Of a stretch of DNA of 64,000 nucleotides, positions 2,750 to 39,304 are shown one piece after another. Origin of the DNA: an uncultured Clostridia bacterium (GTDB lineage: Bacteria; Bacillota; Clostridia; Christensenellales; CAG-138); the NCBI GenBank assembly GCA_947168855.1, contig CAMVNO010000001.1:137077-201076 (forward strand), in the 5' to 3' direction. A program made the position numbers and the translations under genes. How positions within the stretch are numbered: the first letter of the stretch is position 1; every line of letters begins with the position of its first letter. Under the pieces are notes generated by a model, which did no database searches, had not been told where the DNA came from, and was given only the letters and a program-made list of their open reading frames with translations.

Positions 2750-3200
2750 TCGTTTATACCGATTCATGCAGGGACGCAACGGCGTTGACGCGCTTGCAAG
2801 GTTTCTGAACAGGGTAAGCCTCGGCTGTCTGATCGTAGCGATCCTGTTTACTTTTATCTCATTGGTTTGTCTCCGGCGCGAAGCCGTGACTGCTTCGAGT
2901 GTTTTCAGGATTCTTTACTACGTTGTTTACGGAATCGGAATCGTGCTTGCGGTCCTGTGGATCTTCCGGGTCTTTTCCCGGAATGTTTCAAAGCGTCAGG
3001 CAGAGAACACGCGCTTTGAATACCGAATGCAAAAGATCCGCCGCAAGACCGCATCCTTGAAGCAGCGCTGGAAGGACCGCAAAACACTTAAGTATTTTCG
3101 GTGTCCGAACTGCAAACAAATGATCCGCGCTCCGCGGCATAAAGGAAAGATCCGTGTCACCTGTTCCAAATGCGGGCATATCTTTCTTACAAAAACCTGA
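2736..3200 (+). CDS. membrane protein with C-terminal zinc ribbon
   Basis: Two hydrophobic helices, then CPNC...CSKC (CxxC-x17-CxxC). AGGAGA RBS. Overlaps the J-domain gene end, which suggests an operon. Confidence 0.55.
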   Translation: MNFRNRLYRFMQGRNGVDALARFLNRVSLGCLIVAILFTFISLVCLRREAVTASSVFRILYYVVYGIGIVLAVLWIFRVFSRNVSKRQAENTRFEYRMQKIRRKTASLKQRWKDRKTLKYFRCPNCKQMIRAPRHKGKIRVTCSKCGHIFLTKT

Positions 3201-3221
3201 TATTGCGAAAACCTCCGATTG

Positions 3222-3230
3222 TGGTATAAT
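3222..3230 (+). promoter_or_regulatory. extended -10 element (TGGTATAAT) upstream of thyA
   Basis: A TGnTATAAT match sits 28 nt upstream of the thyA ATG, inside the loop of an AAAACCTCCG/CGGAGGTTTT inverted repeat (3208-3253). The right arm of that repeat carries the thyA GGAGG RBS. Confidence 0.4.
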
Positions 3231-3257
3231 AAATAAAACACGCCGGAGGTTTTTAAT

Positions 3258-4088
3258 ATGAGTTACGCAGATCAGGTCTATATCGAGAATTGCAAACGCA
3301 TCCTGAACGAAGGCGTTTGGGATACGGATATGAATGTACGTCCCCGTTGGGACGACGGTACTCCGGCGCATACGGTCAAACTGTTCGGCATTGTAAATCG
3401 GTACGACCTCAGCAAAGAGTTTCCCATCATGACGCTGCGCAGGACCTACTGGAAATCCAGCATCGATGAACTCCTTTGGATATGGCAGAAGAAATCAAAC
3501 AACGTTCATGATCTCGGAAGCCATATCTGGGACAGCTGGGCGGACGAAACCGGCTCGATCGGAAAAGCCTACGGATATCAGCTTGCGCAGAAACATCGAT
3601 ATTCCGACGGCGAGTTTGATCAGGTCGACCGTGTTCTTTACCTTTTGAAACACGATCCCGCAAGCCGCAGGATCCTGACCAATCTGTATAATTTCGAAGA
3701 TCTTCACGAGATGCATCTGTATCCATGCGCATACAGTATGACCTTTAATGTGTCCGGGCACAAGCTCAATGCAATTCTGAATCAGAGGTCTCAGGACATG
3801 CTGACCGCAAATAACTGGAATGTTGTACAGTACGCGGCGCTTGTCCATATGTTTGCGCAGGTTTCCGGATTGGAGCCCGGCGAGCTTGTGCATGTCATAG
3901 CCGATTGCCACATCTATGACCGGCATGTGGAGATGGTGAAAAGAATGATCGAGCTCGATCCGTACGATGCGCCGACCTTCTCGATCGATCCGGATGTAAA
4001 GGACTTCTACGCGTTTACTGCACAGAGTTTCAAAATGCTAAACTATCAATACCATCCGTTTAACGAAAAAATCCCTGTTGCTATTTGA
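3258..4088 (+). CDS. thyA: thymidylate synthase
   Basis: 276 aa. Contains ELLWIW, GSIGKAYGYQ, the active-site region LYPCAYSMTFN, QRSQDM and IADCHIYDRH, all typical of ThyA. Confidence 0.95.
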   Translation: MSYADQVYIENCKRILNEGVWDTDMNVRPRWDDGTPAHTVKLFGIVNRYDLSKEFPIMTLRRTYWKSSIDELLWIWQKKSNNVHDLGSHIWDSWADETGSIGKAYGYQLAQKHRYSDGEFDQVDRVLYLLKHDPASRRILTNLYNFEDLHEMHLYPCAYSMTFNVSGHKLNAILNQRSQDMLTANNWNVVQYAALVHMFAQVSGLEPGELVHVIADCHIYDRHVEMVKRMIELDPYDAPTFSIDPDVKDFYAFTAQSFKMLNYQYHPFNEKIPVAI

Positions 4089-7467: not shown

Positions 7468-7815
7468 TTACAGGGCATTCTTGCCCTCTTTTTTATCTCT
7501 TTTCTGCTTTTCAAGGAAGAAATCGATATTATCAAGAATCGTCTGCTTGTTCGCATCGGTTAAGCTGCGAAAATCAAGGATCAGACGCATTTCAAGCTCT
7601 GATGGTGAAAAGATAGAATCAGAATCGGGATATCCGAGAGTGGATAAAGGAACTTTCAAATACTGGCAAATAAGAACTGCACGATCATACGGAATCCGTT
7701 TGGGTGCCTTCTTTGGGTTCAGATACCCATTAGAAAAACCGCATGCCATTTCAAGTGTGTGGATTGAGATTTTACGATCGCTGCATAGAGATCTCACGAT
7801 TTCAACATCTGACAT
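7468..7815 (-). CDS. XRE-family HTH repressor (cI-like)
   Basis: 115 aa with an N-terminal HTH (ISIHTLEMACGFSNGYLN). Divergent from a cro-like gene across the operator region. GGGGG RBS. Confidence 0.8.
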   Translation of the reverse strand: MSDVEIVRSLCSDRKISIHTLEMACGFSNGYLNPKKAPKRIPYDRAVLICQYLKVPLSTLGYPDSDSIFSPSELEMRLILDFRSLTDANKQTILDNIDFFLEKQKRDKKEGKNAL

Positions 7816-7836
7816 AATGAACCCCCAAAAAATAAT

Positions 7837-7998
7837 TTAGAAAAATTCCTAAATTGACTATTGACAAATTAGGGGATTCCCTATATACTGAAAAAGCAGT
7901 TAGGGAAATTCCTAATCCGATAGTCTATAGTATTGCTCGCAACAATTATTTTAGACTAAAATCTAAAATTCGTCAATAGATTCAAGGAATTTTCCTAA
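7837..7998. promoter_or_regulatory. genetic-switch region with four palindromic operator-like repeats
   Basis: TTAGAAAAATTCCTAA (7837-7852), TTAGGGGATTCCCTAT (7869-7884), TTAGGGAAATTCCTAA (7900-7915) and TCAAGGAATTTTCCTAA (7982-7998). All share AGGRA..TTCCTA half-sites. They lie between the divergent repressor and cro-like genes. Confidence 0.6.
7861..7889 (+). promoter_or_regulatory. sigma-70-type early promoter (TTGACA - 17 nt - TATACT)
   Basis: -35 TTGACA at 7861-7866 and -10 TATACT at 7884-7889 with a 17-nt spacer that is entirely occupied by operator repeat 2. Confidence 0.55.
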
Positions 7999-8009
7999 CT
8001 GATTCGGAG

Positions 8010-8228
8010 GTGATATATTTGGTAAATTTGCAGATCTATGAAAACGTAGCAAAACGATGCAGGGAAAAGAAGATCACTATAGCAGAACTCGAAAGGCAGG
8101 CAGGGCTTGGAAACGCAACAATCGCCGGATGGAAAACGGGATATCCGAGGATTGACAAAATTGTTGCAGTCGCGCAAGTCCTCGATTGCACTGTCGGAGA
8201 TCTGATCAGTGAGGAAATGACCGCATGA
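8010..8228 (+). CDS. XRE-family HTH protein (cro-like)
   Basis: ITIAELERQAGLGNATIAGW is an HTH. GGAGG at 8006-8010 suggests the true start is more likely TTG at 8019 than GTG at 8010. Confidence 0.75.
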   Translation: MIYLVNLQIYENVAKRCREKKITIAELERQAGLGNATIAGWKTGYPRIDKIVAVAQVLDCTVGDLISEEMTA

Positions 8229-8389
8229 ACGCGCGAACAAACTGCCCGAACTGTGGAGCGCCGAAACAGGCAGCCGAATGTGCAGGCCTGGCGCAAAGGA
8301 TCACATCATCCTTCGGCATTGGATTCAATCAAATCAAAGATATCTTTGCTTCTTTCGGGGCAGCTTTTGCAGACATTTTTCGGAGGTAA
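8225..8389 (+). CDS. small hypothetical protein (54 aa, CPNCG motif)
   Basis: Own translation: MNARTNCPNCGAPKQAAECAGLAQRITSSFGIGFNQIKDIFASFGAAFADIFRR. ATGA overlap with the cro-like stop. Below the track size cutoff. It fills an otherwise empty gap. Confidence 0.4.
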   Translation: MNARTNCPNCGAPKQAAECAGLAQRITSSFGIGFNQIKDIFASFGAAFADIFRR

Positions 8390-8394
8390 TCGGC

Positions 8395-8766
8395 ATGAAC
8401 AAGCGGATCCGCAAGAAGCAGCGCGAGCGTGCCAGACGCGACAGCGCCGAACGGTACAGGCAGAATCCGACAGCTGATGCGCTTCTCAAACATTACGAGC
8501 GATTCGGTGAGGTATTGACGCCAATACCGGAGGAGGTACAGGAAGCCATCGACACCGTAAACCGGTTTTTGAAGCAATTGACGCCGCCACATGGAGAACT
8601 GCAGAAAACACTCGATGCCGCATATCTATTCATCGACCATCTTGCGGAAACGATGCAGTTCGTAAGAAAGATTATCGCGGATGCGGTAACCGGCAGTTTT
8701 AGCAAGGGCGGGCGCAGCTCGTACCCGCCCGGACTGATAAATCAGAGGGAGGATGAAAGCGAATGA
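8395..8766 (+). CDS. hypothetical phage early protein
   Basis: ATG at 8395 (MNKRIRKKQRER...) follows GGAGG at 8382-8386. The N-terminal part of track ORF 8278 looks non-coding. Confidence 0.55.
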   Translation: MNKRIRKKQRERARRDSAERYRQNPTADALLKHYERFGEVLTPIPEEVQEAIDTVNRFLKQLTPPHGELQKTLDAAYLFIDHLAETMQFVRKIIADAVTGSFSKGGRSSYPPGLINQREDESE

Positions 8767-9125
8767 AAAAGCTTATTATATTCGATCCCGAGAACGAGAA
8801 ACAGATAAGGTTCAGTTGTCAGCCGGATCCGGTTGACAAAAAGCCGGATCCGCCGTCAACCGGCTCAAACGTCACGCGGCCGGATTTCATGAAACAATGC
8901 TTGTGCGAACCGCGCAAGAAGCCGCAGTTCAATGCAGACGACGCCGAGGAGTTCATCGCAAGACGACTCAAAGACGCACACGACCGGAAAGAAGAGGTTT
9001 TTCGCAAGGACAACATGGACAGGGATCGATTCGATTTTGTGTATTCAGATCAGTATTACCGGCTGCTCGGTGAGGAGATCGCATATCGCAAGATCCTCGA
9101 CTACTTTGCACAGTTCGAGCTTTGA
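8763..9125 (+). CDS. hypothetical phage early protein
   Basis: 120-aa ORF with ATGA overlap to the upstream gene and normal amino-acid composition. Confidence 0.6.
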   Translation: MKKLIIFDPENEKQIRFSCQPDPVDKKPDPPSTGSNVTRPDFMKQCLCEPRKKPQFNADDAEEFIARRLKDAHDRKEEVFRKDNMDRDRFDFVYSDQYYRLLGEEIAYRKILDYFAQFEL

Positions 9126-9137
9126 AAGAGACGGAAC

Positions 9138-9416
9138 ATGGCAAACAAGATCAGAGAGTTATTCTTTCCTACACAGGAAGAACTTGATCAGCAAATGAAG
9201 CCGATTGTCGCTTTGATCCGTGAACAGGTTTCTCGTAAAGAGTGCTGCACCTGCGAAGCGTACACACGCGATGATCTATATCTTCCCGGATTTGTCACTG
9301 GGGGACCGATATGCAAGAACGGCAGATCTGCAAACGAATCATGCGACCTTTACAAAACAGACGATTACTGTAGGAAATTGCTAACGAACCCGCAGGAGCA
9401 GGGCCCGGCTTCTTAG
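9138..9416 (+). CDS. hypothetical Cys-rich phage protein
   Basis: 92-aa ORF containing CCTCE...C..G..C motifs. Confidence 0.55.
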   Translation: MANKIRELFFPTQEELDQQMKPIVALIREQVSRKECCTCEAYTRDDLYLPGFVTGGPICKNGRSANESCDLYKTDDYCRKLLTNPQEQGPAS

Positions 9417-9461
9417 AGGGCTGCGGTGAAGAGTATGCTACGCGCTGTCTGAGGTACTGCT

Positions 9462-9510
9462 CCATAGTGATAAAGGGCGGGCGCACCCCGCGCCCGTCCG
9501 AATCAAAGAA
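9462..9510 (+). repeat. 49-nt direct repeat, copy 1 (contains GC hairpin)
   Basis: CCATAGTGATAAAGGGCGGGCGCACCCCGCGCCCGTCCGAATCAAAGAA. It is 48/49 identical to 9778-9826. Internal stem GGGCGGGCGC/GCGCCCGTCC with loop ACCCC. Confidence 0.9.
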
Positions 9511-9777
9511 CAAATGACCACAAGAATAAAGTTTAGGGCGGTAGGCCGGAAGGAACGCCGGAGGGGCTGCCGTAAGGCAAGGACGTTGCGAGTAGACGAG
9601 GGACGGTGGCGAAAAAAGAAGATGTGTTTTTCGCGGTGGCTGACGAGCCCATCGAGAAGGATGAAAGCATTAGAAGATCCAGTTACGGCAGGCGAGGAAA
9701 AGGGACACCCTCGCAAATCGAAAAACCGATAGGCGCGGCGCCGGCTACTGTCCGGAATGAGTGAATGATGATCCGCG

Positions 9778-9826
9778 CCATGGTGATAAAGGGCGGGCGC
9801 ACCCCGCGCCCGTCCGAATCAAAGAA
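9778..9826 (+). repeat. 49-nt direct repeat, copy 2
   Basis: CCATGGTGATAAAGGGCGGGCGCACCCCGCGCCCGTCCGAATCAAAGAA, 316 nt downstream of copy 1 and 31 nt upstream of the next start codon. Confidence 0.9.
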
Positions 9827-9856
9827 TCATTCATCAACAAATCGGAGGGACACGAG

Positions 9857-10123
9857 ATGATGAAACAGCAACGATACGTCTGCAGCAAATGCGGGCGGCG
9901 GATCAAGTATATCCGCACGAAGAACAAGAAGCTGATCCCGGTCGATTTCGATCCGGTGCCGTTCTGGCGGAACGAGAACGAAAAGGGACGGATCATCACG
10001 GCGAGCGGCACGACAATGTTCTGCGACCTCGAAGGAGCGCCGAACACCGAAACCGGCTTCGGGTACATGACGCACTTCGCCACATGCCCGGCAGCGCAGC
10101 GTGCAAGGAGGGACGCCGTATGA
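9857..10123 (+). CDS. small zinc-ribbon protein (paralog A)
   Basis: MMKQQRYVCSKCGRRIKYIRTKNKKLIPVDFDP...GYMTHFATCPAA. GGAGGGA RBS. Paralogous to the next gene. Confidence 0.65.
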   Translation: MMKQQRYVCSKCGRRIKYIRTKNKKLIPVDFDPVPFWRNENEKGRIITASGTTMFCDLEGAPNTETGFGYMTHFATCPAAQRARRDAV

Positions 10124-10401
10124 TCATATTCAGATTCAGCGTGGGGACATGTAAGGGATGCGGGAAGCCGATCATCTGGATCCAGACGCCGGCGAAGAAA
10201 TCGATGCCATGCGATCCGGGCGAAACGGCATACCGCAAGAATCCGAAGGGAAAAGACAGCATCTTGACTCGAAACGGCGAGGTTGTGCGCTGCGACATCA
10301 TCGGCGCATTTCAGAATTACAGCGACGCGGACGGAATCGGATATGTGCCGCATTGGGCGACCTGCCCGAATGCAGATCAGTTCAGGAGGCGCAAGGCATG
10401 A
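10120..10401 (+). CDS. small zinc-ribbon protein (paralog B)
   Basis: MIIFRFSVGTCKGCGKPIIWIQTPAKKSMPCDPGE...GYVPHWATCPNA. ATGA overlap with paralog A. Shares the CxxC...H(F/W)ATCP layout. Confidence 0.65.
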   Translation: MIIFRFSVGTCKGCGKPIIWIQTPAKKSMPCDPGETAYRKNPKGKDSILTRNGEVVRCDIIGAFQNYSDADGIGYVPHWATCPNADQFRRRKA

Positions 10402-10625
10402 ACGTCGGCATGTATTTAGAGCAGCAATTAAAAAGAGTAGGGAATCAAATGTATGCAGAAGGGCGCTCGAGAGACTACGTCAGAGGATTCATTAGGGGCA
10501 TGCGCTTTCTGAGTGAGACACTCAACAGCATTCAGGAACAAGAAAGACAGGAACGATCCGAACGAATTGCGGAGAAGCTGAAAAACACCAATTTCACGGT
10601 TTTGCTCGGAAGGGAAAGGGAATGA
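10398..10625 (+). CDS. hypothetical phage protein
   Basis: 75 aa. ATGA overlap with the upstream gene. Confidence 0.55.
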   Translation: MNVGMYLEQQLKRVGNQMYAEGRSRDYVRGFIRGMRFLSETLNSIQEQERQERSERIAEKLKNTNFTVLLGRERE

Positions 10626-10888
10626 ACATAGGCGAAGTGAACTGGAGACCGGACGGCTACACGCGCCGGTACATCGAGGATCATCCGGGGCTTCGGCAAC
10701 CGGAAAAAATGTCGGCTTATGATCTCGCTGTGGCCGTAACGTACTGTATGACGTCGGAAAATCCGTATTCCGAAGAACTCTGCAGACGAGCAGGCATGTC
10801 AGCTCAATATGCCGGAGCAGATACGCTCGAACTCAAAACAGCGGTCGTCCGGAAAGCTGCAGGGCATTTCAACATGAAGCTGATGTAG
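10622..10888 (+). CDS. hypothetical phage protein
   Basis: 88 aa. ATGA overlap with the upstream gene. Confidence 0.55.
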   Translation: MNIGEVNWRPDGYTRRYIEDHPGLRQPEKMSAYDLAVAVTYCMTSENPYSEELCRRAGMSAQYAGADTLELKTAVVRKAAGHFNMKLM

Positions 10889-10900
10889 GAGGTACGCGGA

Positions 10901-11122
10901 ATGAATATCAACGTAAATCTGCCGTTTACTTTCTGTGCGGAATGCGTACGGCGTGAACTGAACGATGGGCCTATCTACTTAGGCGACAACATTGCCAGGT
11001 TGGACACACGCTGCAAGCGGGCGGGGATCTGCAAGAACGCGATCACGCTCTATCAGCAGCGCCTCGACGACGGGCGGCTGATCTATCCGGAGGAAAGCGA
11101 GGGAAAAGATGATCATCATTGA
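10901..11122 (+). CDS. hypothetical Cys-containing phage protein
   Basis: 73 aa. GGAGG RBS. Confidence 0.5.
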   Translation: MNINVNLPFTFCAECVRRELNDGPIYLGDNIARLDTRCKRAGICKNAITLYQQRLDDGRLIYPEESEGKDDHH

Positions 11123-11423
11123 CGTACCGCGTCCGGAAAAGTGCCGGGGCTGCCGGTTTATGTGCCTGAAGACGTACAACGAGCATTATACGATCGCAGG
11201 CAGAGCGATGCAGGTAGGACATGCATGCATTCTCGAAAATGAGGATCAGCACCTTTTCGAGAGGGAGGATGAGATCCCGGATGTGCGCCCGGATTGGTGC
11301 CCGCCGATCCTCGGCATTCGTGACGACCTGGCGGAAAAGCTCACGTTCGCCATCGCAAAGAGTAAAGCGCAGTTCGGTAAGATCGAGTATTTCGAAATCG
11401 GGCTGCCTCCGGGGGTTTTGTGA
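11109..11423 (+). CDS. hypothetical phage protein
   Basis: 104 aa. Overlaps the upstream gene end. Confidence 0.5.
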   Translation: MIIIDVPRPEKCRGCRFMCLKTYNEHYTIAGRAMQVGHACILENEDQHLFEREDEIPDVRPDWCPPILGIRDDLAEKLTFAIAKSKAQFGKIEYFEIGLPPGVL

Positions 11424-11424
11424 C

Positions 11425-11631
11425 ATGATCAAGATAGGCGACACGGTCTATACGACAGACGGCGTCCGGATCTATGAAAGCCGGGTAAGACAGATCATCT
11501 ACACGACTGACAATGCAAGTCTCGCTTTTGACAAAAGAGCGATCGGAGATTCAGTTTTCCTTTCCAGGGACGAAGCGGAAAGGAAAATGAAAAGAATGAA
11601 CGGAGGGCAAAACGATGCTGACACTGTTTGA
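11425..11631 (+). CDS. hypothetical phage protein
   Basis: MIKIGDTVYTTDGVRIYESRVRQIIY... ATG at 11425 directly follows the previous stop. It is the downstream part of track ORF 11221. Confidence 0.5.
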   Translation: MIKIGDTVYTTDGVRIYESRVRQIIYTTDNASLAFDKRAIGDSVFLSRDEAERKMKRMNGGQNDADTV

Positions 11632-12115
11632 AGCAGCTGCGAACATGGCGGAGCGGAAACGAGAACGCGAACGCAGGGAAGCGCTCGACAAATATACGAA
11701 GAACATTCTCGAAAAGATCATGAACGAACGCCGCGCCAAGCAAGAGGCAGTCCAAGAAAAGGCGGAGTGGAAACGAGAACGCGAACGCAAGGAAGCGCTC
11801 GGCGAACATACGCTCGAAAAGATCATGGAAAAGATCATGAACGAACGCCGCGCCAAGCAAGAGGCAGCCCAAGAAAAGATGGAAGCGTGGGAAAAGGCGG
11901 AAGCGTGGGATCGCGAGATCACATACGCGCTTGATAAAACCGGAGATCTCTGTACACTCCTCGGCGCGATGGTTGAGGCGGTGCGCTTCGAGAACGGGAT
12001 CATCTGGATCAGACGTCCGGGCGAAGCGATCCAGCTGCAGGTCGGCGAGATCAGAGACGCCGCGGATCTGCGGGCGGCTTGCAAGAAAATGCTCGGATCC
12101 GTCTGCAAGTGCTGA
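11615..12115 (+). CDS. hypothetical coiled-coil protein with internal tandem duplication
   Basis: 166 aa. The block ERKRERERREALDKYT..KIMNERRAKQEAVQEK is repeated as KRERERKEALGEHT..KIMNERRAKQEAAQEK. Confidence 0.55.
   Translation: MLTLFEAAANMAERKRERERREALDKYTKNILEKIMNERRAKQEAVQEKAEWKRERERKEALGEHTLEKIMEKIMNERRAKQEAAQEKMEAWEKAEAWDREITYALDKTGDLCTLLGAMVEAVRFENGIIWIRRPGEAIQLQVGEIRDAADLRAACKKMLGSVCKC
11655..11885 (+). repeat. tandem duplication of about 114 nt inside the CDS
   Basis: GGAAACGAGAACGCGAACGCA..GAAAAGATCATGAACGAACGCCGCGCCAAGCAAGAGGCAG occurs twice, starting at 11655 and 11769. Confidence 0.8.
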
Positions 12116-12126
12116 AGGAGAAGACG

Positions 12127-12361
12127 ATGGACGGAATCACGAAAGACAAGGTCAACGAGCGGGCGGTCAGGATCGCCGCAAAGGTCATGATGCGGGCGGG
12201 GCTGTGCAGGTACGATAGTCCGACGCAATGCAGAAAAAACGTTCATGCCGAACGAAGGCGACTGCGTCGGCTGCATCAAGCGTTTTCTGCTTGGCAAAGC
12301 AAAAAAGGAACTCGAACGGGAGGCAAGGGCAAAATCGACAGTCCGGCGCGATCCTCCATAA
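12127..12361 (+). CDS. small Cys-rich phage protein, apparently interrupted by a +1 frameshift at an A6 run
   Basis: Frame 1 gives MDGITKDKVNERAVRIAAKVMMRAGLCRYDSPTQCRK. After the A6 run at 12234-12239 this frame becomes R/K-rich junk. The +1 frame reads TFMPNEGDCVGCIKRFLLGKAKKELEREARAKSTVRRDPP and stops at 12359-12361. Confidence 0.45.
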
Positions 12362-12655
12362 GAAAAAAACGCGCCGAAGCGCTGCGGTGCCCATGACGCA
12401 GCGATCCGGACGGTGCGCGGCGAAGCCGGGGAAATGTTCACCCCCGTTTTCCCGATCGTCGCGCCGTGTCCGGGACCTGCCCGCGAGGGAAACGCGGGAT
12501 CCCGCGCACAGGTTTTTTCCAATGTCTTTCCTGTGCGCGGTACGGAAGCAAGCGACAAGCGATCCGAACGGAACGATGGGACACCGAACGGATCCAAGCG
12601 TCGCAGAAGGCGGGCGGCGGCACGAACCGCCGCCCATAGATAACCGGAGGTATGT

Positions 12656-12853
12656 ATGGAAAGAATCGAGGGCATGCGGGCGGATAAGATCGGGCTGTTT
12701 CTGCTTGCGAGAAAATCCCTGCAAGTGCTCGATCGCCTGAAGCGAGAGGAAGCGGAAGGCGTCAGCAATACATATTCCCTGATCCGCGAGGAGGCGGAGC
12801 GTGTACGCGCCGAGCGCCTTGCAATAGAAAATCAACAATCGGAGGGCATCTAA
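12656..12853 (+). CDS. hypothetical small coiled-coil protein
   Basis: 65 aa. GGAGG RBS. Immediately upstream of the ParB-like gene and adjacent to it. Confidence 0.55.
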   Translation: MERIEGMRADKIGLFLLARKSLQVLDRLKREEAEGVSNTYSLIREEAERVRAERLAIENQQSEGI

Positions 12854-14191
12854 ATGGTACAAGAAATATACCAAATTCCTGTGGATCTGATCGATCCGCA
12901 TCCAATGAATCCGCGGAAAGATCTCGGAGATCTCACAGAGCTTGTCGCATCGATTAAGCGCAGCGGCATCATGCAGAACTTGACAATCGTACGCAGCGCG
13001 CAAGAGCCGAATCGGTTTACCTGCCTGATCGGTCATAGACGCCTCGCCGCGGCTAAGCTCGCAGGGCTCGCAAACATCCCGGCAACGATCATAGATACCA
13101 TGTCCGAGAAAGACCAGATCGCGACGATGGTAGCGGAGAACATGCAGCGAAACGATCTGACGATCACAGAGCAAGCGAGTGCTGTGCAACTAATGCTTGA
13201 CTTCGGCGATGATTTCAGCACGATCGCCGATCGCACCGGGCTTTCGGAAAGCACGGTCAGACGCCGGGCGAAACTGAATAAGTATGACAAAAAAGCACTC
13301 GATAAAGCGTTCCGGCGCGGCGCGTCATTACTCGACATCGAAAAGATTGATCAGATCGAGGATGCGGAGAAGAGGGAAGAACTGTTGAAAGCTGCGGGGA
13401 CAAAGAATTTCAACAACCTTTTCAAAGACTTCCGGGACAAGCAAGAGAGCAAAAAACTGATCGAGGAGATCTCTGCTATACTCGAACAGAACGGTTTCCG
13501 TCCAATATCAGAAAAGCAGGAAGAAGCATCACGCATCTATATTCAAAATCTATGGAATCTGAAAGCGGCAAAGGACGAGGAGCCGGTAAAAGATCCTGCA
13601 GAATTCAAGAAAAAGCTGCCCTCTGATGCGGTTCTGTACTATAAGACGGTTCTGGGATCATGGCATGATGAAATCGATCTGTATTACACATCAGAACAAG
13701 CTGATGCTGCAGAAGCCGAAAAACGGCAAGAGAAGGATCGTGTAGAAAACTGGATCAGATCCGTCAAGAGCATAAATACGAGATTTCACAACTTGCGCGT
13801 AGAGCATATCAAGAAAGTCATTTCAAAAGGCAAAAGAGAAAAGCCATTTTTTGAGAGTGTTCTTGCGGATCACGTAGTCAAGAGGTTAAAAGGAAGCGGC
13901 GTCAATTACGGCATTGACAGAAAATACGAATCAATTATAAGGGAGGCAAAAAAAGAGATAACCTCCGAGATGAAGCTCTACATCCTTGTAGCATTCGATC
14001 TTGAGAAGCAAGCGGAATCCGGCTGTTTCAGCGAATATTACGGGAAATATCACGAGAACGAAGATATTTCGAAAATCTATGAGCTGTTGGCGGAGGATGG
14101 ATATCAGCAGTCGGACGCAGAGATCTCTTATTATAACGGTACGCATCCTGTGTACTCGAAAAATCCGAAGAGAGATGGCGATCACGAATGA
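12854..14191 (+). CDS. ParB/Srx-like N-terminal domain protein
   Basis: IPVDLIDPHPMNPRKDLGDLTELVASIKRSGIMQNLTIV...LIGHRRLAAAKLAG matches the ParB-like nuclease/CTPase fold, followed by an HTH (FSTIADRTGLSESTVRR). The long C-terminal region is unassigned. Confidence 0.75.
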   Translation: MVQEIYQIPVDLIDPHPMNPRKDLGDLTELVASIKRSGIMQNLTIVRSAQEPNRFTCLIGHRRLAAAKLAGLANIPATIIDTMSEKDQIATMVAENMQRNDLTITEQASAVQLMLDFGDDFSTIADRTGLSESTVRRRAKLNKYDKKALDKAFRRGASLLDIEKIDQIEDAEKREELLKAAGTKNFNNLFKDFRDKQESKKLIEEISAILEQNGFRPISEKQEEASRIYIQNLWNLKAAKDEEPVKDPAEFKKKLPSDAVLYYKTVLGSWHDEIDLYYTSEQADAAEAEKRQEKDRVENWIRSVKSINTRFHNLRVEHIKKVISKGKREKPFFESVLADHVVKRLKGSGVNYGIDRKYESIIREAKKEITSEMKLYILVAFDLEKQAESGCFSEYYGKYHENEDISKIYELLAEDGYQQSDAEISYYNGTHPVYSKNPKRDGDHE

Positions 14192-16378: not shown

Positions 16379-16455
16379 GGATCTGTGGCGCAGTTGGTTA
16401 GCGCGGCCGCCTCATAAGCAGTTGGTCCTCGGTTCGAATCCGAGCAGGTCCACCA
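16379..16455 (+). tRNA. prophage-encoded tRNA, anticodon CAU (Met or lysidine-Ile type)
   Basis: Manual cloverleaf. Acceptor GGATCTG/CAGGTCC, D arm GCGC-AGTTGGTTA-GCGC, anticodon loop CTCATAA, T arm CTCGG-TTCGAAT-CCGAG, encoded CCA. The anticodon stem GCCGC/GCAGT has one C-A mismatch and one G-U pair. Confidence 0.7.
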
Positions 16456-16571: not shown

Positions 16572-17420
16572 ATGTCTTATCGAGTAAAGCAGCGCACGTT
16601 TTCGGGCGTCGTTTGTGAACAGGAGATATTCTCTGTTTCCTCTTCGCGTCGCAGACGGTCAAAAAAGAGACTGCCGCAAATCAGATTCCAATCGGAGGAA
16701 CAATACGAACAGTATAAAGCAGGGATCAGCCGCCGTCGTTTCGTGCAGCTCGTGAACTGCAACTTTTCGCCTTCTTCCTATTATTCCACTTTGACGTTTG
16801 ATCAGGAAAATGAGGTACATACATTTCAGGAAGCGCGTAAAATCCGTGATCGGTTTTGGCGTCGCCTGAAATATATGTATCCGGACGCGGTTATTTGTAT
16901 CGTGATGGGCCGCGGGAAAACGACATCGAGGATCCATTTTCACATGCTCTCTGAAGGCGTCGATCCGGACGATATAAAAAAGCAGTGGATTATGTACGGA
17001 GCCGTCGTAGATATCCGGCAGCTGCGCGAACACAATTATTATAACGGAATCGACTACGGGGCGGACTATACCGCGCTCGCCAATTATTTATGGAAACATT
17101 GGACACCAGAGCAGGGCGGGCATCGATATAAAATGTCAAAGAACGCCAAAAAGCCGGAAAAAGAAACGCCGACGCAGCCGGTCCGCGAGTATTCCGTCGA
17201 GCATCCGCCGCGTCCGCCGATCGGATATGCGTATGTTGAGGGATTCCAGACGGAATACGGATACATGCATTTCAAATATGTAAAGATACCGGAAAAGGAC
17301 AAAAAACAGGGTTCACGCGAAAACCTTTTGAATCTTCCTTGTATATATGAAAAGTTTTGCAACGAAGAAAAGGAGAATGGAATCCGAAGGGTGATATCTC
17401 ACCCGCAGAGCGGTCATTGA
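16572..17420 (+). CDS. candidate HUH-superfamily rolling-circle replication initiator (Rep)
   Basis: Three ordered motifs: YYSTLTFD (motif I, uuTuT), SRIHFHMLSEG (HuH) and ALANYLWKH (YxxK). 282 aa. Family not verified by any search. Confidence 0.5.
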   Translation: MSYRVKQRTFSGVVCEQEIFSVSSSRRRRSKKRLPQIRFQSEEQYEQYKAGISRRRFVQLVNCNFSPSSYYSTLTFDQENEVHTFQEARKIRDRFWRRLKYMYPDAVICIVMGRGKTTSRIHFHMLSEGVDPDDIKKQWIMYGAVVDIRQLREHNYYNGIDYGADYTALANYLWKHWTPEQGGHRYKMSKNAKKPEKETPTQPVREYSVEHPPRPPIGYAYVEGFQTEYGYMHFKYVKIPEKDKKQGSRENLLNLPCIYEKFCNEEKENGIRRVISHPQSGH

Positions 17421-39225: not shown

Positions 39226-39235
39226 TCTGGTGGAG
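39226..39235. repeat. attR core (TCTGGTGGAG)
   Basis: Identical to 4628-4637. Overlaps the 3' terminal CTCCACCA of tRNA-Ala on the minus strand. Confidence 0.6.
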
Positions 39236-39304
39236 CTTAGGGGATTCGAACCCCTGATCTCTACACTGCCAGTGTAGCGCGATAGCCAACTTCGCTAAAG
39301 CCCC
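39228..39304 (-). tRNA. tRNA-Ala (anticodon GGC)
   Basis: Manual cloverleaf of the reverse complement. Acceptor GGGGCTT/AAGCTCC with the G3-U70 Ala identity pair, anticodon loop CTGGCAG, T arm AGGGG-TTCGAAT-CCCCT, encoded CCA. Confidence 0.85.

Follow-up and report, generated by a model that had tools for sequence, protein, structure and literature searches.

Both the punctuation of phage early operons by RNA elements and the shuffling of modules mediated by cassettes are known kinds of system. In the early region of phage T7, and in the Bacillus phage SP82, RNase III sites occupy intercistronic gaps, and protective hairpins remain after cutting. The putL and putR elements of HK022 are cis-acting RNAs of the early operons, made of two stem-loops, which act on RNA polymerase so that it reads through terminators. 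Among gut and rumen Clostridia, phage early operons are punctuated by self-cleaving ribozymes. T4-type phages are said to carry PeSL (promoter-early plus stem-loop) cassettes, reportedly a subject of work by Arbiol and colleagues in 2010. Clustered self-cleaving ribozymes flank prophage genes, and the processing of polycistronic RNA has been proposed as their role (PMC3088659, PMC6765202).

The locus described here belongs to a 64,000-nucleotide stretch of DNA from an uncultured Clostridia bacterium (the window), where it lies within an early rightward operon that has a near-consensus promoter at 7861–7889 and a cro-like gene at 8010–8228. The stop codon of gene 9138–9416 and the start at 9857 of the first zinc-ribbon gene (9857–10123, phrog_5984) are separated by a gap of 440 nt, hereafter the island; the neighbouring genes of the operon overlap or sit a few bases apart. 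No terminator-like site was found within the island, in agreement with the absence of U-tract terminators in the preliminary description, nor were promoter-like sites found inside it. Its plus strand folds better than expected (z = −2.8; 0 of 100 shuffles as good), whereas the minus strand does no better than shuffles (z = −0.8). The island is single-copy in the 2.42-Mb host assembly, a 16-contig draft, which answers in the negative whether the repeats in it, or the 316-nt unit that they delimit, recur in this genome.

Two direct repeats of 49 nt had been recognized in the island, at 9462–9510 and 9778–9826, each with a 10-bp stem closed by an ACCCC loop, and both observations hold. The repeats are identical at 48 of 49 positions, with an exact identity of 44 nt (9467–9510 and 9783–9826) and a start-to-start spacing of 316, and none of the shuffled windows reproduced the match; the stem (GGGCGGGCGC/GCGCCCGUCC, with one G·U pair) is found at 9475–9499 and again at 9791–9815. 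The repeat is, however, longer than first noted. Alignment of 9384–9515 with 9720–9831, and with a homologue from the same genus (G152/L003), delimited two diverged copies, of approximately 110–130 nt, of a motif that we designate M; the 49-nt repeats correspond to the 3′ halves, in which the two copies are identical. Each M comprises a 7-bp helix (P1) enclosing a variable hairpin, an invariant linker and a GC-rich hairpin (P2), laid out as follows.

9384–9510, plus strand: M copy 1 (M1 type), with P1 formed by GGAGCAG (9395–9401) and CUGCUCC (9457–9463).
About 9413–9452, plus strand: irregular hairpin inside P1 of M copy 1, containing the stop codon of gene 9138–9416.
3′ part of M copy 1, plus strand: linker AUAGUGAUAAAGGGCG, P2 (9475–9484 with 9490–9499) and tail GAAUCAAAGAA (9500–9510).
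9720–9826, plus strand: M copy 2 (M2 type), with P1 formed by GGCGCGG (9732–9738) and CCGCGCC (9773–9779).
9741–9744 with 9752–9755, plus strand: inner hairpin of M copy 2, CCGG with CCGG, loop CUACUGU.
3′ part of M copy 2, plus strand: linker AUGGUGAUAAAGGGCG, P2 (9791–9800 with 9806–9815) and tail (9816–9826).
9827–9859, plus strand: leader of the next gene, UCAUUCAUCAACAAAUC, with the ribosome-binding site GGAGGG at 9844–9849 and the ATG at 9857.

M copy 1 thus extends over the final eight codons of the upstream gene and its stop. Comparison of the two copies revealed compensatory change in P1, since the pair GGAGCAG/CUGCUCC of the first copy is replaced by GGCGCGG/CCGCGCC in the second, with two base pairs changed on both sides and the pairing kept. 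The linker follows the consensus R-U-R-GUGAUAA-R-GGGCG, in which GUGAUAA is invariant across all M types. P2 occurs as four sequence variants, all of them hairpins but with differing loops, of 5, 8 or 11 nt, and its arm register also varies. Folded singly and compared with shuffles, the copies gave z = −3.2 (copy 1) and z = −3.1 (copy 2).

The likeness to T7 and SP82 lies in the presence of sequence-related, repeated hairpins between the cistrons of a polycistronic early RNA. Unlike the sites of these phages, which are found at most junctions, M occurs once per operon. Because its helices, of 7 and 10 bp, are split by a single-stranded linker, M lacks the duplex of about 20 bp of the T7 and SP82 sites, and each helix would fall short of the roughly two turns of near-continuous duplex of a classical RNase III site; coaxial stacking of the two helices is possible.

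A covariance model of M, R1, scores copy 1 at 97 bits and copy 2 at 125 bits. Searching 27 genomes of the genus with R1 yielded full M copies in G152 and G205, and the same search of 239 genomes of the family gave nothing convincing, the weak matches being GC hairpins or the leader of a cobalamin riboswitch (L040). Real M is therefore limited, among the genus and family genomes searched with this model, to G000, G152 and G205; the confinement of the matches indicates that the motif is real but narrowly distributed, occurring in the prophages carried by a single genus of Clostridia from the ruminant gut. Other searches gave the same picture. A DNA search of 201 family genomes produced one real match, that in G152, those in L004–L006 being due to chance; the GenBank phage collection gave no match at the DNA level; pattern scanning of IMG/VR returned a single, chance match; and of 26 matches from a pattern scan of genome contigs, 24 were due to chance and the real ones were L022, on the same contig as L003, and L030. 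Homologues of M copy 2 are found in G152/L003, L034, L030/L038, L036, L057, L066 and L070–L075, and the M1 type is the sole M in L060–L065. Related phages with enough sequence normally contain one M per early operon, 0.7–1.8 kb downstream of the cro-like gene and irrespective of the flanking genes. A boxA-like word on the minus strand of the P2 tail, TGTTCTTTGA, was set aside as a chance occurrence, since it is found 18 times in the genome and lies on the wrong strand.

Between the two M copies of the window lies a second module, I, which has a shorter relative, I-short. We compared the arrangement of these modules in metagenome contigs encoding close variants of the zinc-ribbon protein, and in assembler contigs of ruminant-gut runs, obtaining the following series.

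geneX, M1 and zinc-ribbon gene, that is, the window minus exactly the 316-bp unit: L060, L061, L062 and L065.
M1, I and M2, as in the window: L035 and L059.
One M, then I, then the ribosome-binding site: L075 and runs X14, X19 and X26.
geneX fused directly to an M2-type copy, with the junction at 9389/9726: runs X7, X24 and X26.
A single M with hairpin P2-b (GGGCGGGCGC AGCUC GCACCCGCCC): L057, L063, L064 and L070–L074.
I-short, of about 100 nt, before the zinc-ribbon gene, with M absent: L076–L079.
I-short, a small Cys-rich gene and then M: L057 and L036.
9467–9782, plus strand: the 316-bp unit between the 44-bp identical repeats, present or absent among the phage variants.

The 316-bp unit consists of I and the 5′ half of the second M, and M is found twice in the window because this unit lies between the copies. 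Variants differ by exactly the segment between two cassettes, and the 5′ halves (M1 and M2a–c) and 3′ halves (P2a–d) of M are found in various combinations, joined at the invariant linker. Together, the arrangements and the linker-joined halves show that M serves these mosaic phages as a conserved boundary cassette for recombination; the 316-bp unit would be added or removed by homologous exchange between the 44-bp halves in which the M copies are identical. PeSL cassettes reportedly behave alike, as repeated stem-loop cassettes at gene boundaries whose intervening module is shuffled, added or deleted by recombination. Unlike these, M has no promoter, its cargo is a non-coding RNA instead of an ORF, and both the phage lineage and the host are others.

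The preliminary description had offered, as one possibility, the footprint of a small non-autonomous mobile element carrying a duplicated target. A presence/absence polymorphism of 316 bp bounded by the repeats is indeed real, but the proposal is wrong as it was put, because the repeats are copies of a motif of which sister phages already possess one. A MITE, or another non-autonomous transposon, was discarded, there being a single copy in the genome and the 44–130-nt "duplication" already existing in relatives with the empty site; a search of 9200–10100 for inverted repeats detected no terminal ones at either end of the unit. Likewise, we rejected a CRISPR mini-array or a solitary-repeat anti-CRISPR RNA, given that the repeats are spaced 316 nt apart and that no CRISPR array was detected in the 16-contig draft host assembly.

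Upstream of the island, another trace of the motif was found within a gene.

8704–8730, plus strand: remnant of a P2-b-like hairpin, AAGGGCGGGCGCAGCUCGUACCCGCCC, inside the 3′ end of gene 8395–8766 and weakly matched by R1.

The counterpart of gene 8395–8766 in L073–L075 ends at about 8704–8730 and is followed by a full M, and X26 has a junction at 8702. The hairpin is probably, judging from these arrangements, the scar of an earlier M copy.

Several inner helices had been reported from the stretch between the repeats. The helices exist, but the coordinates first given for them were one base too low, and the corrected positions are included here with the remaining parts of module I.

9511–9725, plus strand: module I, optional, structured and non-coding, of about 205 nt.
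9546–9549 with 9558–9561, plus strand: hairpin a, CCGG with CCGG, followed by a GGGG run.
9567–9575 with 9683–9691, plus strand: long-range helix, CUGCCGUAA with UUACGGCAG, enclosing a branched insert of about 107 nt.
9610–9616 with 9627–9633, plus strand: hairpin within the insert, CGAAAAA with TTTTTCG, flanked by CGGTGGC at 9604–9610 and 9634–9640.
9692–9697 with 9709–9714, plus strand: H_end, GCGAGG with CCTCGC, at the 3′ end of I and followed by CAAAUCG.
9732–9738 with 9773–9779, plus strand: GGCGCGG with CCGCGCC, which is P1 of M copy 2.

Module I is present in L035, L059, L075 and runs X14, X19, X24 and X26, and absent from L060–L065 and L070–L074. I and I-short are related and contain the same parts in the same order, namely a hairpin of 4–6 bp, a G run, the 5′ strand of a 9-bp helix, an insert, the 3′ strand of this helix, H_end, CA..AAAUC and the ribosome-binding site; the insert within the long-range helix measures 107 nt in I, as compared with about 17 nt in I-short. 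The idea of a CsrA sponge in I was abandoned, its GGA count being that expected from composition.

The long-range helix (CTGCCGTAA with TTACGGCAG in the window) covaries with the I-short of L057 and L076, with two pairs changed on both sides, from A-U to G-C and from U-A to C-G, and one pair mismatched in I-short. MAFFT mis-paired the strands when aligning I with I-short, and the sequences were realigned after cutting the window-specific insert 9584–9674 from I, so that the resulting alignment, A5, is an edited construct. In this edited alignment, 94.7% of the cells are paired, as compared with 32–59% when the partners are slid, and the shuffle control of the test is weak, with 10 of 500 shuffles reaching the observed score; the pairing test thus supports the predicted long-range helix on very few sequences. 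Changes from G-C to G·U in the H_end of L075 and L076 preserve the pairing and are compatible only with an RNA of the plus strand. Looking for covariation in homologous prophage regions, as had been suggested beforehand, thus gave compensatory changes in P1 and the long-range helix; these amount to a handful of pairs, drawn from a tiny diversity of M (three or four types) and of I (two types). The fold z-scores of I-short and of M plus twister (see below) are not significant.

The island is non-coding. As already noted from the sequence, it holds no credible ORF, because the frame at 9514–9732 is open and R/K-rich, lacks a Shine-Dalgarno sequence and has a codon score like that of non-coding DNA (−0.20, versus +0.18 to +0.44 for the real neighbouring genes). 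Its richness in R and K stems from the purine-rich strand. In frame 0 of I, the codon score lies slightly above zero, at 0.13. Gene callers left the gap empty in L059 and in the L057-type contigs, a six-frame search of phage records found no protein homologues of the island or of I, and none of I were found among 5.8 billion protein clusters. We thus rejected the island as a protein-coding gene, there being no ribosome-binding site, no coding codon usage and no homologues with a conserved frame. It is accordingly very improbable that ORF 9514–9732, or the frame-0 ORF 9606–9764, specifies a small basic protein, such as an N-like antiterminator encoded beside its RNA target. The 72-aa ORF 9514–9732 is open, with an arginine-rich N-terminus placed directly after the hairpin, and in the L075-type arrangement it runs in frame into the zinc-ribbon gene. 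However, four of its five natural substitutions are non-synonymous and its C-terminus varies between architectures, in addition to the missing ribosome-binding site, the negative codon score and the failure of both homology searches.

A role as DNA also has little to commend it. The island is rich in hairpins and strand-biased, and could serve the HUH Rep-like protein, whose gene is at 16572–17420, as an origin or a single-strand origin, or else be a protein-binding site, but we find this hard to credit. The replication origin contemplated in the preliminary description is unsupported, as no iterons were found, nothing ties the island to the Rep-like gene, some 7 kb away, and the modules shift between phages relative to the neighbouring genes. 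Moreover, M or I is missing in some sister phages, the variation in loop length and arm register of P2 is unlike a dimeric DNA site, and the excess of RNA described below would be left unexplained.

A type-P1 twister ribozyme (RF03160) lies within two nucleotides 3′ of P2 in five relatives, L034, L030/L038, L066 and L003, scoring, respectively, 54.9, 62.3, 52.3 and 46.2 bits (E from 2e-7 to 5e-12); all these matches are below the gathering score of RF03160, 67.2, and have the conserved core, UAA...GC.GCC...CGGUCCCAAGCCCG..UAAA.GC.GAG, intact. The same core of about 45 nt also occurs in unrelated contigs. No twister was detected in the window at E ≤ 1, or in 9100–10200 at E ≤ 10. The Rfam scan that the preliminary description had recommended (Rfam 15) left the island without a family match at gathering or permissive thresholds, and only two tRNAs, located elsewhere, reach threshold in the whole window. 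Comparison of the twister of the relatives with the I of the window and with the empty arrangements indicates that the slot 3′ of P2 is filled by a ribozyme or by module I, or is left empty. In the relatives M occurs alongside the twister, and thus is not simply a substitute for it.

M and I resemble the self-cleaving ribozymes of prophages (hammerheads, Perreault et al. 2011, PMC3088659; twister, PMC6765202) in being placed after a stop codon and before a ribosome-binding site, among small early genes, and in being modular and swapped between sister phages. They differ from them in that the window matches no ribozyme family and in that neither M nor I shares sequence or structure with known classes.

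Since a ribozyme, I or nothing occupies the same slot, we propose placing M and I in the functional category of the ribozymes. They may be RNA cassettes that replace one another between cistrons and that process or stabilise the polycistronic early transcript, a reading for and against which we see the scales about level. From the comparisons above, we infer cleavage at or near M, protection by hairpins and any function of I. M and I would cut the early polycistronic RNA, or mark it for cutting, and the hairpins would cap the cut ends, with the P1 domain shielding the upstream 3′ end and P2 the downstream 5′ end, in such a way that gene dosage along the operon would be set post-transcriptionally. 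Where two copies of M are present, the segment from one linker to the other would be freed to give a stable, hairpin-capped RNA of about 316 nt. A bolder version, in which M (with GUGAUAA between two helical domains) or I would be a new class of self-cleaving ribozyme or an RNase-guiding element, interchangeable with twister, and the 316-nt RNA would have a function of its own, appears to us doubtful.

To L035 and L059, the island shows 4 and 6 differences in 440 nt (0.9–1.4%), as compared with 36 differences in 546 nt (6.6%), 19 of them in synonymously changed codons, for the two flanking genes (Fisher p = 2e-6 and 3e-5); the island is thus conserved approximately 5–7 times more strongly. Independent metagenomes share three variant sites within the island and have many others in its flanks. 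The low divergence is possibly due to purifying selection on the whole island or to recent recombinational spread, and the ten variant sites known show no tendency to fall outside the predicted pairs (p = 0.29), so that selection and recent spread are not told apart by them.

Recent exchange, together with the passive stability of hairpins, could even account for the island with no RNA function at all, M being a recombination boundary and I the decaying remnant of a gene. The shuffling of M halves at the linker, the P2-like scar within a gene at 8704–8730, the lack of relationship between the window and L035 upstream of 9100, and the codon score of 0.13 in frame 0 of I would all fit. Nevertheless, we regard this as rather unlikely, because P1, the helix of I and H_end accumulate compensatory and G·U-preserving changes, the linker is invariant in all types, and M is kept in all early-operon contexts but one. 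This reading also fits poorly with the lack of any homologue among 5.8 billion protein clusters and with a ribozyme in the homologous slot.

The island is transcribed. In one bovine-gut (rumen) metatranscriptome sample, the depth of the island or of I was 2–6 times that of the neighbouring coding pieces, as estimated from strandless assembler contigs, whose depth is a poor measure of abundance. In X24, a contig spanning 9465–9755 had a depth of 59.5, whereas the early genes upstream stood at 22.2, the M2 piece at 17.9 and the downstream side at 10.5. In X25, I (9546–9706) reached 12.8 and a second non-coding island (12333–12606) 26.6, these being the two deepest prophage pieces among the 10 of 11 pieces listed, in which the coding pieces ranged from 2.2 to 5.5. 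No excess of depth over the island was seen in DNA runs. The contig depths suggest that the assembly graph of X24 fits a high coverage of the 316-nt unit, which starts in P2, takes in I and ends in the P1 domain that follows. Nonetheless, a structured, GC-rich RNA can persist passively as decay-resistant debris.

The second conserved non-coding island, at 12362–12655, has G·U-preserving changes that fit only an RNA of the plus strand. No similarity was found between the two islands.

The interpretation of the island as a structured RNA, one of those put forward initially, is supported by the fold bias of the plus strand and the compensatory pairs in P1 and the long-range helix, as well as by its conservation, the lack of protein homologues, the excess depth in the metatranscriptome and the twister at the same slot in relatives.

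The RNA depths also bear on whether M acts on transcription, as a put-like cis-acting RNA that renders RNA polymerase resistant to termination, a nut-like site on which a phage antiterminator loads, or a leaky, U-less attenuator dividing immediate-early from delayed-early genes, with I as unrelated cargo. M possesses two hairpin domains with compensatory changes, it appears about once per early operon, 0.7–1.8 kb past the cro-like gene and whichever genes flank it, and the RNA depth of X24 halves across it, from 22.2 to 10.5. The HK022 put elements, similarly, exist as two diverged copies whose pairing is kept by compensatory changes. They differ in that no terminators lie downstream of M, which resembles them in neither sequence nor size, follows several genes where put lies just past the promoter, and is associated with a ribozyme. 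Only one weak terminator-like site was found on the plus strand of 7700–13000, L076–L079 are devoid of M, no N-like or Q-like gene was identified, and the twister beside M in the relatives points to cutting of the RNA and not to modification of the polymerase. We thus deem a transcription element of this type a poor prospect.

Finally, I, with or without M, might be a trans-acting non-coding RNA, a phage "moron" serving as decoy, sponge or regulator of a host or defence factor. Its optional presence, in some sister phages only, would be in keeping with such a role, as would the extreme conservation of I and its accumulation beyond the level of the mRNA, which the second conserved non-coding island shares. 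On the other hand, I has neither promoter nor terminator of its own, no target or partner was identified, and no CRISPR array to mimic was detected in the draft host assembly; the occurrence of I-short in the same place as M and the twister suggests a role in cis. A trans-acting RNA is therefore, in our opinion, rather improbable. Processing or stabilisation of the early transcript is the reading that we prefer.

M, I and the second island appear to be undescribed and outside Rfam. The arrangements found in these phages (M; M plus twister; M plus I; I-short; and M-I-M) constitute a natural allelic series for probing intercistronic RNA elements of phages. Should M, I or the second island prove to be self-cleaving or to guide a host RNase, it would represent a new processing element; otherwise, the locus is still a clear case of recombination shuffling non-coding cassettes at a conserved hairpin motif.

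The C-terminal tail of gene 9138-9416 varies with the type of the RNA motif M that lies downstream, as seen by comparing window 9387-9416 with the junction 9389/9726 in assembled contigs of sequencing runs X7, X24 and X26. With the first copy, M1, the tail reads ...LTN-PQEQGPAS*, whereas with M2 it reads ...LTN-PIGAAPATVRNE*. The stop codon of this gene is contained within M, and therefore the P1 helix must be unfolded by terminating ribosomes.

A hairpin resembling P2-b, the variant of the P2 hairpin found in relatives, encodes the C-terminal tail of gene 8395-8766 (AAGGGCGGGCGCAGCUCGUACCCGCCC, window 8704-8730). The counterpart of this gene in the related contigs L073-L075 terminates at ...AGTTTTAGCTAA and is followed by a complete M. 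From these sequences, the hairpin looks like an M remnant that was taken into the coding sequence.

Further non-coding features of the window are:

16379-16455, plus strand: tRNA-Met(CAT), in the early region, just 5' of the Rep-like gene
39228-39304, minus strand: tRNA-Ala(GGC)
12333-12655: second non-coding island, rich in hairpins, 5' of a 65-aa gene and a ParB-like gene

The second island has a predicted folding energy of -149 kcal/mol, no match in Rfam and no sequence in common with M or with I, the module between the M copies. L057 and L058 carry this island at 98% identity, and it showed the top depth (26.6) among the 10 of 11 prophage pieces listed for metatranscriptome run X25, whose contigs are unstranded. 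A single C-to-U difference changes a G-C pair to G.U on the plus strand.

Sister phages L070, L073, L075 and L076 carry an HNH_3 endonuclease gene (264-272 aa; about 3030-3850 in each), directly after the second small gene downstream of the zinc-ribbon gene. In other sister prophages, type-P1 twister ribozymes adjoin the P2 hairpin of M, directly 3':

L034, 7991-8042
L030, 4015-3956, minus strand
L066, 642-693
L003, 1588-1642

All four have a shortened P3 and a weak P1 of 3 bp, and score 46-62 bits, under Rfam's gathering score. The twister core of about 45 nt (L034 7994-8039) recurs with 0-4 mismatches in several contigs of runs X35, X37 and X38 that have unrelated flanks, and therefore the ribozyme module itself appears to be mobile between contexts.
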